From the NCBI GenBank assembly GCA_030765685.1, contig JAVCCB010000015.1:8113-72112 (forward strand): a stretch of DNA of 64,000 nucleotides, in the 5' to 3' direction. The notes beneath the pieces were generated by a model. That model was not told the DNA's origin and did no database searches. It saw nothing but the letters and a program-made list of their open reading frames with translations. Of this stretch, positions 24,620 through 58,980 are shown in pieces. The position numbers were made by a program, and so were the translations under genes. Position 1 is the first letter of the stretch. Each line of letters starts with the position of its first letter. The DNA is from Candidatus Tantalella remota. GTDB taxonomy: Bacteria; Omnitrophota; Gorgyraeia; Tantalellales; Tantalellaceae.

Positions 24620-24722
24620 GCTCCATATTCGCTCGAGTGCTCCCGCATTTGGGCGGATATGGGGCGGGCACGGGGTCCTTTTGGGTATTTAGTATTCAGT
24701 ATATAGCATATGGTATATAGTA

Positions 24723-24764
24723 TTGAGTCTTGAGTCTTGAGTATTGAGTATTGAGTATTGAGTT
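24723..24764. repeat. Heptamer microsatellite (TTGAGTN)x6, preceded by an AGTAT-rich low-complexity tract (24686-24722)
   Basis: Read directly: tattgagtc ttgagtc ttgagta ttgagta ttgagta ttgagtt. Related TTGAG/CTCAA short repeats recur at 25975-26000, 26038-26058, 26355-26377 and 58078-58098. Confidence 0.8.
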
Positions 24765-24865
24765 TTAGTGTGAAGCGGCTAGTTTTGTTCGCTCTTTGGT
24801 CTATCTGAAAATAATTTAAAAAAAAGCATCTAGAGTAGTTCCCTCCATGGGGTCAGACCTTGACA

Positions 24866-24894
24866 TTGACATAAGCTGACTGGGTTGCTATAAT
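24866..24894 (+). promoter_or_regulatory. Sigma70-type promoter with perfect consensus hexamers upstream of the RayT gene
   Basis: TTGACA (24866-24871), a 17-nt spacer, TATAAT (24889-24894). A second overlapping TTGACA sits at 24860-24865. AAAGGAGG RBS at 24907-24915, 7 nt before ATG 24923. Confidence 0.7.
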
Positions 24895-24922
24895 CTTATC
24901 ATAGCGAAAAGGAGGTTATGGT

Positions 24923-25876
24923 ATGGCGAGACCGTTGAGGATAGAATATGAAGGAGCAGTATATCATGTAACCTCAAGAGGTAACGAAAAGAAGGATATC
25001 TATAAATCGGATCGGGATAGAGAGAGGTTTTTGGGATATCTTGAGATAGCGCATGAAAGGTTTAATATAATAATTCACGCGTTTTGTTTGTTGTCCAACC
25101 ACTATCATTTAATTGTAGAAACCCCGTGTGCTAATCTATGCAGGTTCATGCAGTTTTTAAATTCTAGCTATACAATGTATTTTAATACAAAAAGAAAGAG
25201 AAGCGGGCATCTGTTCCAAGGGAGATATAAGGCCATTCTGGTGGACAAAGACAGCTATATGCAGGAATTGAGTCGTTATACGCATTTGAATCCGATAAGA
25301 GCAAAGATAGAGAAACGTCCTGAAGATTATAGATGGAGCAGTTATAACTATTATATTAAGGATGGAAGCAAACCGGAGTATCTGGATACAGATTTCACGT
25401 TACAGTATTTCAATAATAATAGGAAAAGATACAGGGAGTTTGTCGAGGCGGGGATGACGGGGAAAACGAAGAATGTGTTTGATGAGATTAAGGCAGGATT
25501 TATTTTGGGGGATGATGATTTTGTTGAAAAAATAAAAGAGAAATATTTACAGGAAGAACAAAGACCTGAAGATCTTCCAGAACTACGAAGACTAAAAAAG
25601 AAGTATATTACCAAAGATGCAATATTGAAGGTTTTGGAGAAGGAAGCAAAAAGGGAGAAGTTAACAGCGTACTATTTGCGAAAACACACAGATGAAACAT
25701 TGCAGGGGATAGTCAAGCTGGCATACAGGGAAAAGCGCAGCAGTTCGTGTATAAGTAAAACAGTTTCAAGAATAGAAGAAAAACGACGTAAAGATAAGAG
25801 TTTTAATAAGAGGTTGGAACTTCTCGAGGAGCAAATGTCAATGTCAAGGTCTGACCCCAAAGCGGGAGGTACCTGA
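24923..25876 (+). CDS. IS200/IS605-family Y1 (HUH) transposase, RayT / REP-associated tyrosine transposase type, with a long Lys/Glu-rich C-terminal extension
   Basis: 317-aa ORF with a strong RBS. Motifs AVYHVTSRGN, HUH motif HYHLIVETP, and RYTHLNPIRAKIEKRPEDYRWSSYNYY, which carries candidate catalytic tyrosines. REP-like palindromes lie downstream in the same intergenic region. Confidence 0.85.
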   Translation: MARPLRIEYEGAVYHVTSRGNEKKDIYKSDRDRERFLGYLEIAHERFNIIIHAFCLLSNHYHLIVETPCANLCRFMQFLNSSYTMYFNTKRKRSGHLFQGRYKAILVDKDSYMQELSRYTHLNPIRAKIEKRPEDYRWSSYNYYIKDGSKPEYLDTDFTLQYFNNNRKRYREFVEAGMTGKTKNVFDEIKAGFILGDDDFVEKIKEKYLQEEQRPEDLPELRRLKKKYITKDAILKVLEKEAKREKLTAYYLRKHTDETLQGIVKLAYREKRSSSCISKTVSRIEEKRRKDKSFNKRLELLEEQMSMSRSDPKAGGT

Positions 25877-26124
25877 TGGCTGATTTCTCGATTTCCGGCT
25901 AGGATGGCAACGTATATCGTAGCGCGCGCAGCACCTACATAACATGCTATGAATAAAGAGCTTACCAAAGAGGCTAAGATTGAGATTAAGATTGAGAAGA
26001 ATGACCAAAATCCCGGAAAACACCCATAACTAAACGCTAACCTCAATCTTAACCTTCCATAGCGTCCAGAGCGCGTTGCACTCATGTAACATGCTTCTAA
26101 TAAATAACTTACCGCGGACGCAAA

Positions 26125-26194
26125 GTTAACCTGGTCATATGTAACCTGGTTATATATTCCAACTTTTGTAACCTGGTTATATATTCCAACTTTT
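26125..26194. repeat. Tandem direct repeat: two copies of a 27-mer (26141-26167, 26168-26194) plus a partial copy (26125-26140), core TAACCTGGTTATAT
   Basis: gtaacctggttatatattccaactttt occurs twice in tandem. The same core recurs at 58312-58338 and inverted at 58389-58399. Confidence 0.85.
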
Positions 26195-26220
26195 TCGCCT
26201 AACAAATGGAAAGTAAAATC

Positions 26221-26250
26221 GTCATCCCCGCAAGTTCTTAGCGGGGATCA
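26221..26250. repeat. REP-like palindrome (GTCATCCCCGC-loop-GCGGGGATCA)
   Basis: 8-bp perfect stem atccccgc / gcggggat with a 9-nt loop. Same family as the hairpin at 58437-58460. Confidence 0.7.
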
Positions 26251-26272
26251 AATAAAAGTATTATTCCTACTA

Positions 26273-26377
26273 GATTCCCGCTTCGCCGAAGCCCTCTGGC
26301 TTTCGGCACTTCCTCGGGGGCCTTTGCCCCTCGGTCGCGCGGGAATGACATCCTTTCTTAACCTCAACCTCAACCTC
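26273..26377. repeat. REP-like element in opposite orientation with a GC-rich inserted loop (arms gattcccgc ... gcgggaatgac), followed by the linker atcctttcttaacctcaacctcaacctc
   Basis: Arms at 26273-26281 and 26339-26349, 8 bp complementary. The composite (arm plus linker) recurs reverse-complemented at 58079-58123, on the other side of ORF2. Confidence 0.6.
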
Positions 26378-26463
26378 CCAGAGCTTTTACGGAGACCATA
26401 TATAGGTAGGAAGGGGAATTAATGGCAGTTCTGGTTAAGTTTTAAAAAGTTATTAAAAAGTCC

Positions 26464-26491
26464 TTGCCTATAATGATACGTGTGATATACT
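26464..26491 (+). promoter_or_regulatory. Candidate promoter for ORF2 (TTGCCT-16 nt-TATACT; an alternative TATAAT at 26469-26474 lies in an AT-rich tract)
   Basis: Hexamers about 55-80 nt upstream of ATG 26545. RBS GGAAGGTGA at 26531-26539. Confidence 0.35.
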
Positions 26492-26544
26492 TTATGTAGG
26501 GTTAAGTGTTACGAAAGTTTGGCGTAATTGCAGGAAGGTGAAAG

Positions 26545-57873: not shown

Positions 57874-57974
57874 TCGCAAACTGCTGGTCGTGCGGCCGGT
57901 CAGATGTCATATGGTTTGAGATGTTGTAGTATTTTTAAGTAGCAAACGGCGAAAGGAGGTCGGGGGAAAAGTTT

Positions 57975-57996
57975 GGTTCGAGAGTTCACTCGAACC
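57975..57996 (+). other. Perfect 8-bp hairpin ggttcgag-agttca-ctcgaacc downstream of ORF2
   Basis: Read directly. No T-run follows, so it is not called a terminator. Confidence 0.4.
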
Positions 57997-58036
57997 ATGT
58001 AGAGGTGCACAAAACCTTCCTGCATCTCGAAGAAAA

Positions 58037-58064
58037 GGCTCCGGCCGTAAGGTCGGAGCCTTTT
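58037..58064 (+). terminator. Rho-independent terminator candidate for ORF2
   Basis: ggctccggcc-gtaa-ggtcggagcc: 10-bp GC-rich stem with one G.U pair and a GNRA-like loop, followed by TTTT (58061-58064). About 165 nt after the ORF2 stop. Confidence 0.6.
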
Positions 58065-58078
58065 CAATTGTAGAGTAG

Positions 58079-58123
58079 GTTAAGGTTGAGGTTAAGGACG
58101 TCATTCCCGCGGAAGCGGGAATC
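58079..58123. repeat. REP-like hairpin (cattcccgc-GGAA-gcgggaat, 58103-58122) with adjacent linker ggttaaggttgaggttaagg. Inverted copy of the composite at 26339-26377.
   Basis: The reverse complement matches gcgggaatgacatcctttcttaacctcaacctcaacc, found upstream of ORF2. Confidence 0.65.
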
Positions 58124-58325
58124 CATTGATAATGATAGGTATGCCGTTTATGGTTAATAGGTTACGTCTTTGGAATCGTTAAAGGGTTTACGGCTGGGGT
58201 TGAACCGCCACCTCTTAACGTAAGACGTTTCGATAGACGCAACCCTTCAACGTGATCCGTATTTGTTCCTGATGTCCCAATATTCTGCTTTCCTGGTCCC
58301 GATACCCGGTTTAACCTGGTCGAAA

Positions 58326-58401
58326 TTAACCTGGTTATATTTGCAGACCTGCCTTGATGTTTCATCAAGGCACCCCCCCCCCATGAAAATAACCAGGTTG
58401 A
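58326..58401. repeat. Structured intergenic element: 11-bp inverted repeat aacctggttat / ataaccaggtt enclosing an 8-bp hairpin (58352-58370) and a C10 homopolymer (58373-58382)
   Basis: Read directly. The IR core equals the tandem-repeat core at 26141-26194. The C10 tract could be slippage-prone. Confidence 0.7.
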
Positions 58402-58436
58402 AAATGCGACCCTATCTTGATCTTAAGCTGCACATC

Positions 58437-58507
58437 GTCATCCCCGCGGAAGCGGGGATCTAATGAAAATATTACTTCCATTTGATTCCCGCGTTCGCGG
58501 GAATGAC
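58437..58507. repeat. REP doublet in opposite orientations: gtcatccccgc-GGAA-gcggggatc (58437-58460) and gattcccgcg-TTC-gcgggaatgac (58484-58507)
   Basis: Two 24-nt palindromes 23 nt apart. The second is the reverse complement of the 58100-58123 type, a BIME-like inverted REP pair. Confidence 0.75.
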
Positions 58508-58827
58508 GTTCGAGTTTGTCCCTGATATCCCGATATCCTAGTCCTTGATCCCCAGATTCCCTGATGTCCTGCTCCTACGAGTATCCAGGATCTGATGACT
58601 GGTTACTGGATCCCCGATGATTGCAATACAGTAAAGGTTTGTAAAACTAGGTTTATGGGTAGTTCTGTGAGGTCACTAGAGGGTTCCCAGGAGCCTTGAG
58701 AGGCGAGAAATGGTGCGTTCGGTCTTCTTATATTATTAATACTAAAAGAGCCCGAGAGGCCATTTTAAGCGAAAAAAGCAGTTTTTTCGCCATGCGGTTA
58801 AGGTGTAAAATAGCTAGAAATAAGGCT

Positions 58828-58855
58828 TTGACAAACTTTCCAAATATGATAAGAT
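58828..58855 (+). promoter_or_regulatory. Candidate sigma70 promoter for ORF3: TTGACA (58828-58833), 16-nt spacer, extended -10 TGaTAAGAT (58847-58855)
   Basis: Perfect -35 hexamer. The -10 hexamer is 4/6 with an upstream TG. About 125 nt upstream of ATG 58981. RBS GGGAG at 58973-58977. Confidence 0.45.
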
Positions 58856-58980
58856 AGTACAGTAATTAGCCATACAAAAAGTAAGAATTTTCCGAACTGT
58901 TTGGTGATCTTAAAAAGGTCAAGAACGGGAAGGGATTCGTATACTCTGAGAAAGTCAAACCCTTTAATAAGTGGGAGTTT

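Follow-up and report, generated by a model that had tools for sequence, protein, structure and literature searches.

The window, which is the whole 64-kb stretch of DNA analysed, carried a gene for a 317-aa protein with a Y1/HUH domain and a C-terminal helix-turn-helix (HTH) domain, a 24-nt inverted repeat that enclosed most of this gene, and five REP-type palindromes. Only about 2 kb of the window was non-coding, all of it in two spacers. The coordinates of the element, of its expression signals and of the palindromes are as in Table 1.

Table 1. Features of the Y1-HTH element and of the REP palindromes in the window.
Feature	Position	Strand	Basis
Complete element assigned to the TIRtrons, 1010 bp (left TIR, promoter, Y1-HTH gene, right TIR)	24849..25858	+	Element alignments, empty sites in relatives
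Left terminal inverted repeat (TIR), GGGGTCAGACCTTGACATTGACAT	24849..24872	+	Perfect complement of 25835-25858
Predicted sigma-70-type promoter, TTGACA-N17-TATAAT with extended -10 TG; -35 box within left TIR	24866..24894	+	12/12 consensus positions
Shine-Dalgarno sequence AGGAGG, ATG 7 nt further on	24910..24915	+	Sequence reading
Y1-HTH (TIRYT) gene, 317 aa	24923..25876	+	ORF list, Pfam, NCBIfam, alignment of 41 family members
Y1/HUH catalytic domain, about residues 1-145 (H60-Y-H62, G95HLFQGR101, Y119THLNP124)	24923..25357	+	Pfam Y1_Tnp, alignment, AF2, Foldseek
DnaA-domain-IV-like HTH, C-terminal, about residues 214-307	25562..25843	+	Family profile against DnaA; Pfam on members
Right TIR, within 3' end of ORF, encodes ...MSMSRSDP	25835..25858	-	Inverted-repeat search
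REP A: CGTC, ATCCCCGC, 9-nt loop, GCGGGGAT, CAA	26220..26251	+	Pattern search; fold -8.9 kcal/mol, z -4.8
REP B: TGTC, ATTCCCGC, 57-nt structured loop, GCGGGAAT, CTA	26271..26350	-	Fold -22.9 kcal/mol, z -3.7
REP C: CGTC, ATTCCCGC, GGAA, GCGGGAAT, CCA	58099..58125	+	Pattern search
REP D: CGTC, ATCCCCGC, GGAA, GCGGGGAT, CTA	58436..58462	+	Pattern search
REP E: CGTC, ATTCCCGC, GAAC, GCGGGAAT, CAA	58482..58508	-	Pattern search

The Pfam profile Y1_Tnp (PF01797) matched residues 12-120 of the 317-aa protein with 42.2 bits (cut-off 23; E 1e-10) and was also matched by all 41 family members. Residues 60-68 read HYHLIVETP, and H60, H62, Y119, H121, L122, N123 and P124 were unchanged in the alignment of all 41 family sequences, so that the HUH motif and catalytic tyrosine proposed in the first-pass annotation were borne out. 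The Y---NP signature, given for class-2 TnpA_Y1 proteins (Quentin et al. 2018, PMC6006769), was present as Y119-T-H-L-N123-P124 and was likewise invariant in the 41 sequences. The AF2 model of the protein had a pLDDT of 86 and its top PDB match with Foldseek was 4er8_A, the TnpA_REP of E. coli (E 5e-7, TM 0.75), with the TnpA structures of IS608 and ISDra2 ranking behind it (E ~1e-4). The NCBIfam equivalog REP_Tyr_transpos (NF047646) aligned over the full domain (protein 6-139 against model 4-146 of 146) but scored 66.8 bits, under its cut-off of 80. With phmmer, the N-terminal domain had no match among PDB sequences, and the profile and fold searches were the only ones that worked. At the C-terminus, positions 214-312 of the family profile matched DnaA (2hcb/1l8q, E 1.3e-5), and Pfam matches among the 41 members were PF08299 (Bac_DnaA_C) in 22, HTH_23 in two and HTH_28 in one; in the window protein alone, Bac_DnaA_C was below Pfam significance. 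Overall, these results place the 317-aa protein among the class-2 Y1/HUH enzymes, on the RAYT/TnpA_REP branch. A homologue search showed that the family, which bears 'RayT/REP element-mobilizing transposase' labels, has at least 7,900 proteins. A contig scan, for which non-conserved peptides had been picked, yielded only distant loci with 29-43% identity, mostly from Patescibacteria.

The two arms of the inverted repeat paired at 24 of 24 positions, with a chance expectation of 0. The stop codon of the gene was located 16-18 nt beyond the edge of the element, therefore the last five residues (KAGGT) of the protein are encoded by flanking DNA. This perfect repeat had been overlooked in the first-pass annotation, which took 24923-26377 as the unit; the actual element runs from 24849 to 25858. 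The promoter sequence upstream of the gene is predicted to be functional, and an identical promoter geometry was read directly off the sequence of the homologous locus L031. Reading of the right TIR showed no apparent antisense promoter, with no -10 box at proper spacing. A possible IS200-type subterminal hairpin at the left end (GTCAG...CTGAC) was considered and rejected because it was not kept in L031.

A TIR of equivalent kind was found in 14 of the 15 homologous loci examined, from Omnitrophota to Legionella, while a repeat scan of the homologue in L044 (Desulfobacterales) found none. Of 14 loci scanned, 13 had (G)GGGTCA... repeats in corresponding places, with the left arm 27-119 nt 5' of the ATG and the right arm across the stop codon, and the homologue of Legionella adelaidensis showed the same repeat arrangement as the other loci. 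Five Omnitrophota loci shared the TIR of the window or a related one. The TIRs were the best-conserved portion of the element in comparisons with L031 and L038: L031 was flanked by the identical 24-mer with only 71.6% nucleotide identity over the whole element, and the two TIRs of L038 were 24/24 and 23/24 identical to those of the window with 60.8% overall. The two element copies of one genome (L033) each had their own matched repeat.

In Di Nocera, De Gregorio & Rocco 2013 (PMC3733652), TIRYT genes and TIRtrons are described as RAYT-like genes with long TIRs that are unrelated to REPs and carry the outer motif GGGGWSAS. The outer TIR end in the window, GGGGTCAG, agreed with this motif, and the outer ends across L031-L043 were GGGGTCAG or GGGTCAG. 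Quentin et al. 2018 (PMC6006769) describe group 2.1.2 of the TnpA_Y1 proteins as extended at the C-terminus by sequence resembling Bac_DnaA_C, HTH_23 or HTH_28. Judged on its sequence, the window element is a TIRtron encoding a TIRYT, a type equal to TnpA_Y1 subclass 2.1, and it probably falls in group 2.1.2.

Alignment of the window element with those of L031, L032 and the two L033 copies showed that similarity vanished exactly beyond GGGG...CCCC, with unrelated flanks, and the neighbourhoods of the element varied between loci. In L033-35 the element separated a Pyr_redox gene from a DUF1667 gene, and the corresponding empty site was found in L045 and L046, where the two genes were adjacent (7 nt apart or with a 4-nt overlap). 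The two L033 copies were divergent and lay inside 10 kb. In addition, gene-less TIR dimers of 64 and 70 bp were found in L036 and L039, three copies in total and all on metagenome contigs; the window had no such miniature. The window element was 82% identical to that of L032, while the adjacent gene was only 27% identical; this gene, downstream of the element in L032, is homologous to the N-terminal part of giant gene 2. Synteny with L032 through orthologous inheritance was rejected, the context being only similar and the upstream ORF unrelated. No target-site duplication was evident at the 15 insertions examined. These observations establish how the TIRtron is built, which family it belongs to and where it ends, as well as its insertion polymorphism and its miniature derivatives.

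A domesticated, immobile Y1-HTH protein such as a regulator or a DNA-processing factor, with the TIRs acting as operators or in mRNA 5'-3' pairing, is an unlikely explanation of the gene. It would account for the overlap of the left TIR with the -35 box, for the HTH domain and for the single element copy within the 64-kb window, and class-2 Y1 genes are reported to be low in copy number, which would also agree with partial domestication, and are viewed as domesticated. However, the empty site in relatives with insertion inside a conserved operon, the sharp boundaries at the TIR ends in unrelated neighbourhoods, the two divergent copies of L033, the gene-less dimers, the greater similarity to L032 of the element than of the adjacent gene and the invariant catalytic residues all argue against it. 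The exact boundaries, the operon empty site, the gene-less miniatures and the extra conservation of the TIRs instead provide sequence-level support for TIRtrons that are mobile or were recently mobile, and we rate this among the clearest cases of such support known to us.

The REP palindromes were all located in the approximately 2.1 kb of non-coding DNA (5/5) and none was found in the approximately 62 kb of coding DNA. The first-pass annotation had described two palindromes of opposite orientation downstream of the gene and three more at 58.1-58.5 kb. Both groups were confirmed, with A and B at 344-474 nt downstream of the stop codon, outside the element, and C, D and E at the second location. 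The pattern GTCATYCCCGC-N3-30-GCGGGRAT had four matches in the window against 0.00 expected from 100 shuffles. REPs A and B formed an inverted dimer, and D and E a REPIN-like inverted dimer that folded into one long hairpin (-24.2 kcal/mol, z -5.5). Half-site matches at 25448 and 36463 were inside coding sequence and were not palindromes. A generic search for CGTC with any 8-bp stem (one mismatch, loops of up to 70 nt) was discarded as noisy, with 26 matches against about 11 in shuffles, and only the ATYCCCGC family stood out among its matches. No match was found with Rfam in the whole window at gathering thresholds, a permissive Rfam search of the spacers produced only sub-threshold noise (RsmY, FtrB), and searches for tRNA and tmRNA were negative; neither the palindromes nor the 57-nt loop insert of REP B is therefore a known RNA.

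The repeat, with REP C as its example, had multi-copy counterparts at 90-96% identity in Neisseria gonorrhoeae (at least 40 places), Azospirillum lipoferum, Sphingobium/Novosphingobium, Cupriavidus and Legionella, in agreement with the taxa given for CGTC-1 REPs. In PMC3733652, a CGTC-1 REP is characterised by a CGTC (or TGTC/CCTC) tag that stays unpaired, a stem of 8 bp with AT at its start, a loop of 4 nt and a tail resembling CCA. The window REPs shared the tag, the AT-initial stem, the inverted dimers and the intergenic sites with the CGTC-1 REPs of Neisseria (dRS3), Rickettsia (RPE-6) and alpha-proteobacteria. REP C had every CGTC-1 feature; the 4-nt loop was present in three of the five REPs, with tails CCA in C, CTA in D and CAA in E, whereas A and B differed by enlarged loops of 9 and 57 nt. 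By their sequence, the palindromes thus fit CGTC-1 type REPs (dRS3-like), a widespread 'orphan' family, as two inverted dimers and one singleton. The window host lies outside the five phyla given in the 2013 account (PMC3733652), and the range of CGTC-1 REPs now includes Omnitrophota. Near-identical CGTC-1 palindromes occur across phyla. These REPs are most likely transcribed hairpins downstream of genes, or may merely be tolerated selfish DNA. For the giant genes, whose rearrangement or shuffling by these repeats had been suggested at first, no consequence was demonstrated, and the spacers just gather tolerated selfish DNA.

The first-pass annotation had combined the ORF and the palindromes into a RayT with its cognate REPs, that is, a RAYT that spreads the GTCATYCCCGC...GCGGGRAT palindromes as its own REPs or REPINs. 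The enzyme of the RAYT/TnpA_REP branch and the genuine REP-type repeats stood; their pairing did not. Such pairing could draw on the branch of the protein, on the two REP dimers with REPIN-like geometry, on the position of the nearest dimer downstream of the gene, on L039, a metagenome contig with miniature TIR dimers and no gene, where one CGTC-1 REP was found, and on a reconstructed insertion site that resembles a degenerate REP. However, the REPs were one-sided and beyond the element boundary, with none in the spacer upstream of the gene, and the conserved flanks of the gene were TIRs in 14/15 loci. These flanks are the halves of a single 24-nt inverted repeat, and not REP hairpins on both sides. 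The adjacency of REPs and gene carries no evidential weight because non-coding space is scarce and REPs occupy each of the two spacers present, hence adjacency is expected by chance.

Co-occurrence elsewhere was also lacking in the loci checked, where no other RayT-like copy was accompanied by this REP family. The first 35 loci lacked the palindrome CGTCATYCCCGC, and this also held for the five Omnitrophota loci among them that share the window TIR or a relative of it. The palindrome was equally missing from the later TIRtron loci L037, L038, L040, L041, L043 and L047, and no copy was found within 3-10 kb of 11 other TIRtrons. In addition, the tag of the window REPs was CGTC in four and TGTC in one, and the GTAG (GT[AG]G) guide of RAYT substrates was absent. 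The REP_Tyr_transpos score under its cut-off also speaks against a RAYT with cognate REPs. CGTC-1 REPs are reported never to flank Y1 genes and to be without a dedicated transposase (PMC3733652), and TnpA_Y1 subclass 2.1 is described without REP association nearby (Quentin 2018, PMC6006769). Overall, a cognate RAYT-REP system is very improbable, and the TIRtron and the CGTC-1 REPs are most probably unrelated kinds of repeat that share the spacers between giant genes. The 'RayT/REP' label was accordingly corrected, as the family members examined are TIR-bounded elements and not REP-associated genes. Under the TIRtron reading, GGGGTCAGACCTTGACATTGACA TIR sites are expected to be few and to come in pairs, and REPs to be numerous without Y1 genes between them; under the cognate RAYT-REP reading, REP abundance would follow the Y1 gene.

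A functional connection between the two kinds of repeat was considered, in which a TIRYT inserts by preference into the loops of REP-type hairpins on single-stranded DNA or moves CGTC REPs in trans. The reconstructed empty site of the window (GTAGTTCCCTCCAT / AAAGCGGGAGGTAC) was self-complementary at 9 of 14 positions and had TTCCC...AAGCGGGA...TGAT in common with the neighbouring REPs. Flanks were complementary at 8/14 positions or more in five of 15 elements, and both kinds of repeat were present on the L039 contig and in Legionella adelaidensis. Since L039 has both repeats and the window insertion site looks like a decayed REP, there may be some link between the two systems; that TIRYTs insert into REP loops or move CGTC REPs is nevertheless improbable.

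For the TIRtron itself, we infer the strand-transfer chemistry, the DNA binding by the HTH domain and the autoregulation as follows. On single-stranded DNA the complementary TIRs would anneal into a 24-bp panhandle, which would place the 5' GGGG next to the 3' CCCC. There, the strand would be cut and rejoined by the HUH/Tyr119 centre, in analogy to TnpA_REP and IS608. The short copies that consist of the ends only (64-70 bp hairpins) would be mobilised in trans, as RAYTs presumably mobilise REPINs. Duplex TIR is the probable binding site of the HTH domain, and because the -35 box of the perfect consensus promoter lies within the left TIR, binding there would autoregulate the gene. To our knowledge, transposition has not been demonstrated experimentally for any TIRYT, and the panhandle model is an analogy.

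Among known transposase systems, the IS200/IS605 family (IS608, ISDra2) has the Y1/HUH fold in common with the window element and presumably the single-strand DNA chemistry. An ordinary insertion sequence of this family would agree with the Pfam match, whose profile is named 'Transposase IS200 like', and with the Foldseek matches to IS608 and ISDra2 TnpA. Members of the family, however, have distinct subterminal hairpins and no TIRs, their TnpA measures some 130-155 aa and tnpB is frequently present, whereas the window element has long TIRs, a two-domain protein of 317 aa with an HTH tail, the class-2 Y---NP motif and neither tnpB nor any second ORF, and its top structural match was TnpA_REP. 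This makes an ordinary IS200/IS605 element extremely improbable.

The RAYT of E. coli (TnpA_REP, 4ER8) shares HUH and Y---NP with the window protein. With a single domain and some 150-200 aa, RAYTs are about half as long as the window protein, which has the additional HTH domain. A RAYT is flanked by REP hairpins that fold on their own and carry a 5' GTAG guide, in contrast to the halves of one long inverted repeat in the window. The logic of REPtrons is nonetheless analogous, with a gene between inverted copies of its presumed substrate and miniature doublets (REPINs) elsewhere. The L036 and L039 dimers resemble REPINs and MITEs as hairpin-forming doublets of the ends of an autonomous element, and differ in that they stem from TIRtron ends and not from REPs.

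The closest correspondence is with TIRtrons, from which the window element differs in its host phylum (Omnitrophota) and in the specific sequence of its repeat. The promoter with a -35 box in the TIR, the ORF that leaves the element and the empty-site evidence were not met in the available parts of the TIRtron accounts (PMC3733652, PMC6006769). The long TIRs with a GGGGWSAS outer end, the right repeat over the 3' end of the gene, the long protein with a C-terminus of the Bac_DnaA_C/HTH_23/HTH_28 type and REPs that do not flank the gene are common to TIRtrons and to the window element, and TIRtron repeats sometimes make small repeated families.

The 317-aa ORF that the first-pass annotation had reported to carry an HUH motif was genuine, with HYHLIVETP read at residues 60 to 68, and its Pfam Y1_Tnp score of 42.2 bits exceeded the cut-off of 23. 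It is the TIRYT gene (a Y1/HUH transposase gene) of a TIRtron, a mobile element of about 1 kb bounded by its own terminal inverted repeats (TIRs). The protein belonged to a very large family (at least 7904 matches of about 315 aa, aligned over their full length) with members in Omnitrophota, Desulfobacterales, WS2 and other groups. H60, H62, G95-H-L-x-Q-G-R101 and Y119-x-H-L-N-P124 were invariant in 41 aligned members; Y---NP is described as the class-2 (TnpA_REP-like) signature in Quentin et al. (PMC6006769). The AlphaFold model of the protein (pLDDT 86) had its closest PDB match in E. coli TnpA_REP with bound REP hairpin (4ER8, E 5e-7, TM 0.75), followed by IS608 and ISDra2 TnpA (E ~1e-4). 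The NCBIfam equivalog REP_Tyr_transpos aligned over the whole length, yet its 66.8 bits were below the cut-off of 80. By profile, the C-terminal 100 residues resembled DnaA domain IV (2hcb/1l8q, E 1.3e-5), and Pfam identified Bac_DnaA_C in 22, HTH_23 in two and HTH_28 in one of the 41 members. The gene had an AGGAGG ribosome-binding site and a promoter agreeing with the sigma-70 consensus at 12/12 positions (TTGACA-17-TATAAT plus TG), with its -35 box within the left TIR.

Coordinates of the TIRtron, REP palindromes, giant ORFs and spacer repeats in the window
Feature	Position	Placement	Size
TIRtron	24849-25858		1010 bp
Left TIR arm	24849-24872	50 nt before ATG	24 nt
Promoter	24866-24894		
TIRYT ORF	24923-25876	+ strand	317 aa
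Right TIR arm	25835-25858	within last codons of TIRYT ORF	24 nt
Giant ORF 1	47-24619	co-oriented with other two	8190 aa
Giant ORF 2	26545-57873	co-oriented with other two	10442 aa
Giant ORF 3	58981 to past window end (64000)	co-oriented with other two	
Non-coding stretches	24620-24922, 25877-26544, 57874-58980		
REP A	26220-26251		
REP B	26271-26350		
REP B loop insert	26282-26338		57 nt
REP C	58099-58125		
REP D	58436-58462		
REP E	58482-58508		
AGGTTR/AACCTY runs	26357-26376, 58077-58096	tagged side of REPs B and C	
Further AGGTTR/AACCTY runs	26038-26055, 25975-25997	same spacer as REP B	
TTGAGTA tandem copies	24681-24763	directly downstream of giant gene 1	
Direct repeat	25921-25978, 26068-26125		58 nt
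Inverted pair	25971-25988, 26038-26055	flanked by direct repeat	18 nt
TAACCTGGT(C/T)ATAT motifs	26126-26194, 58311-58340, 58390-58405	both spacers	

A perfect 24-nt inverted repeat, GGGGTCAGACCTTGACATTGACAT, which had been overlooked in the first-pass annotation, was found on both sides of the TIRYT ORF; the window held no further copy, and none was expected by chance. Its start, GGGGTCAG, fits GGGGWSAS. The same 24-mer lay beside homologues at comparison loci L031 (protein 66% identical), L032, L037 and L038, and related GGGGTCAG... repeats beside both copies in L033 and at L035, L040, L041, L043, L001 and L002. In 13 of 14 loci the left arm preceded the gene by 27-119 nt and the right arm lay over the stop, and in L033, one genome with two element copies, each copy had a matched repeat pair of its own. 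The TIRs were the best-conserved part of the element, being 24/24 identical with L031 (elements 71.6% overall) and 24/24 and 23/24 identical with L038 (60.8% overall). The layout was also found in Legionella adelaidensis NCTC12735, a cultured gammaproteobacterium (L047, NZ_LR134433.1, 2878-3873), with a 45% identical TIRYT and the TIR GGAGGGTCAGGCCTTGCCTTTTG; other replicon records of this strain bear CGTC-1-like REPs. The scan gave no flanking inverted repeat for a 46% identical Desulfobacterales homologue (L044, 10001-10960), which has perhaps decayed or been domesticated. Because it is kept in homologues, matched in pairs and strongly constrained, the TIRYT gene has its conserved partner in the 24-nt TIR rather than in the palindromes. 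A plain IS200/IS605 element fails as an explanation, since end structure, protein size and Y motif do not match and tnpB is absent.

Alignment of the left and right junctions of five elements showed similarity from exactly GGGG to exactly CCCC with unrelated sequence outside, and the element therefore measures 1010 bp. The TIRYT stop codon lies outside it, so the last five residues come from flanking DNA. Neighbourhoods of the loci varied from giant genes to toxin-antitoxin/IS-rich regions and a glycerol-3-phosphate dehydrogenase-type operon. At 137-2714 of the Omnitrophota-like contig L041, at a distance of a few kb from its TIRtron, were an IS110 transposase and a set of genes resembling a diversity-generating retroelement (Lcl_C target, bAvd, RVT_1). 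In L033-35 the element separated a Pyr_redox gene from a DUF1667 gene. In two relatives, L045 and L046 (Pyr_redox protein 77% identical), the two genes have 7 nt between them or share 4 nt, and their junction is the empty site. No target-site duplication was evident in the 15 insertions examined. A metagenome scan for the exact TIR produced two additional gene-carrying elements and three gene-less miniatures of 64-70 bp, consisting of two TIRs and a 17-23 nt spacer (contigs L036, 4502-4565, and L039, 1210-1279 and 1920-1989), which would form predicted hairpins of 23-24 bp. The two L039 miniatures were in direct orientation with common flanks GGGAAATTTAG / CAGATACCTTC, and enclosed a 187-aa Cys-rich ORF with a weak DUF5131 match.

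A domesticated, immobile regulator would fit the overlap of promoter and TIR and the low copy numbers in the literature, but is argued against by the empty site, the sharp boundaries, the unrelated contexts, the miniature derivatives and the 82% identity of the L032 element against only 27% for its adjacent gene. The window copy had an intact gene and perfect TIRs, and its family showed invariant catalytic residues, insertion polymorphism and miniature derivatives. Most probably the two ends would anneal, in single-stranded DNA, as a 24-bp panhandle and so bring the GGGG and CCCC termini together, where the HUH/Tyr119 centre would cut and rejoin, as TnpA_REP and IS608 do; miniature TIR dimers would be moved in trans. 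The HTH domain would bind the duplex TIR, which would repress the gene's own promoter because the -35 box is embedded in the left TIR.

All five palindromes of the first-pass annotation were in place and intergenic. The pattern GTCATYCCCGC-N3-30-GCGGGRAT had 4 matches in the window against 0.00 expected, and the fifth palindrome, REP B, was tagged TGTC and had a loop of 57 nt. The tag was unpaired in every REP and was otherwise CGTC, the stem had 8 bp and began with AT (ATTCCCGC or ATCCCCGC), the loop had 4 nt in three of the five copies and the tail was CCA, CTA or CAA. Copy C, CGTC|ATTCCCGC|GGAA|GCGGGAAT|CCA, agreed with the CGTC-1 description on every point. A/B and D/E were inverted dimers, the latter folding as one long hairpin (-24.2 kcal/mol, z -5.5). 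A 36-nt query with copy C found multi-copy sites of 90-96% identity in Neisseria gonorrhoeae (at least 40 places per record), Azospirillum lipoferum, sphingomonads, Cupriavidus, Ralstonia, Rhizobium and Legionella. The REP B insert folded as a pair of GC-rich hairpins, GCCGAAGCCC...GGCTTTCGGC and CCTCGGGGGCC...GCCCCTCGG, and had no match in Rfam. Hexamer runs abutted REPs B and C, so the repeated unit may exceed the palindrome.

The three giant ORFs occupied most of the window, leaving only about 2.1 kb of non-coding DNA; the first 600 residues of ORF 3 were 36% identical to the ORF 2 N-terminus. At L032 2027-3409 the TIRtron was upstream of a 27% identical homologue of the giant ORF 2 N-terminal module, and very long genes also adjoined TIRtrons in L031 and L040. 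Other spacer repeats were about 12 tandem TTGAGTA heptamers, a direct repeat of 71% identity which with its inverted pair had no match to known RNA, and a motif family that included a perfect 27-nt tandem duplication (TGTAACCTGGTTATATATTCCAACTTT x2).

A cognate REP-RAYT system is disfavoured. CGTCATYCCCGC was absent from all of the first 35 loci, no such palindrome was found at the later TIRtron loci L037, L038, L040, L041, L043 and L047, and in total 11 other TIRtrons had no such REP in 3-10 kb of flank each; only L039, with its miniature TIR dimers, had one copy. A TIRtron has to avoid the giant ORFs, and REPs are present in both spacers, the only two in the window, so a REP neighbour is expected and the proximity has no weight. 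The first-pass reading of a RayT with cognate REPs was supported in part: it held for the enzyme, a class-2 Y1/HUH protein nearest TnpA_REP, and was not supported for the REPs as its partner, the TIRs being conserved instead. Most simply, the REPs are tolerated selfish or structural hairpins 3' of genes, and nothing ties them to the proposed rearrangement of giant genes. The 14-nt flanks of the window element (24835-24848, 25859-25872) were complementary at 9/14 positions and, rejoined as GTAGTTCCCTCCAT|AAAGCGGGAGGTAC, resembled a decayed copy of the neighbouring REPs (TTCCC...AAGCGGGA...TGAT), into whose loop the element may have inserted; flanks of 5 of 15 elements were complementary at 8/14 or more. 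Such flanks could mean that some lineages have longer TIRs or that palindromic targets, possibly REP loops, are preferred for insertion. They give a lead towards a real functional link between TIRtron and REPs, though such a link is very improbable.

RAYT-like genes with long flanking TIRs are described as TIRYTs and TIRtrons by Di Nocera et al. 2013 (PMC3733652), with TIRs that carry conserved GGGGWSAS, at times lie over the gene 3' end and at times occur in small repeat families. Quentin et al. 2018 (PMC6006769) treat TIRYTs as equivalent to TnpA_Y1 subclass 2.1, which has a Bac_DnaA_C/HTH_23/HTH_28 C-terminal domain, and report that automatic and manual searches gave no REP-like sequence near subclass 2.1 genes. 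The features of the window element are those of the published definition. The CGTC-1 family takes in the Neisseria dRS3 repeat and is reported never to flank Y1 genes (PMC3733652), and the taxa matching copy C overlap those listed for it. Judged by its sequence, the window element is an Omnitrophota member of the already known TIRYT/TIRtron class, beside known orphan CGTC-1 REPs.
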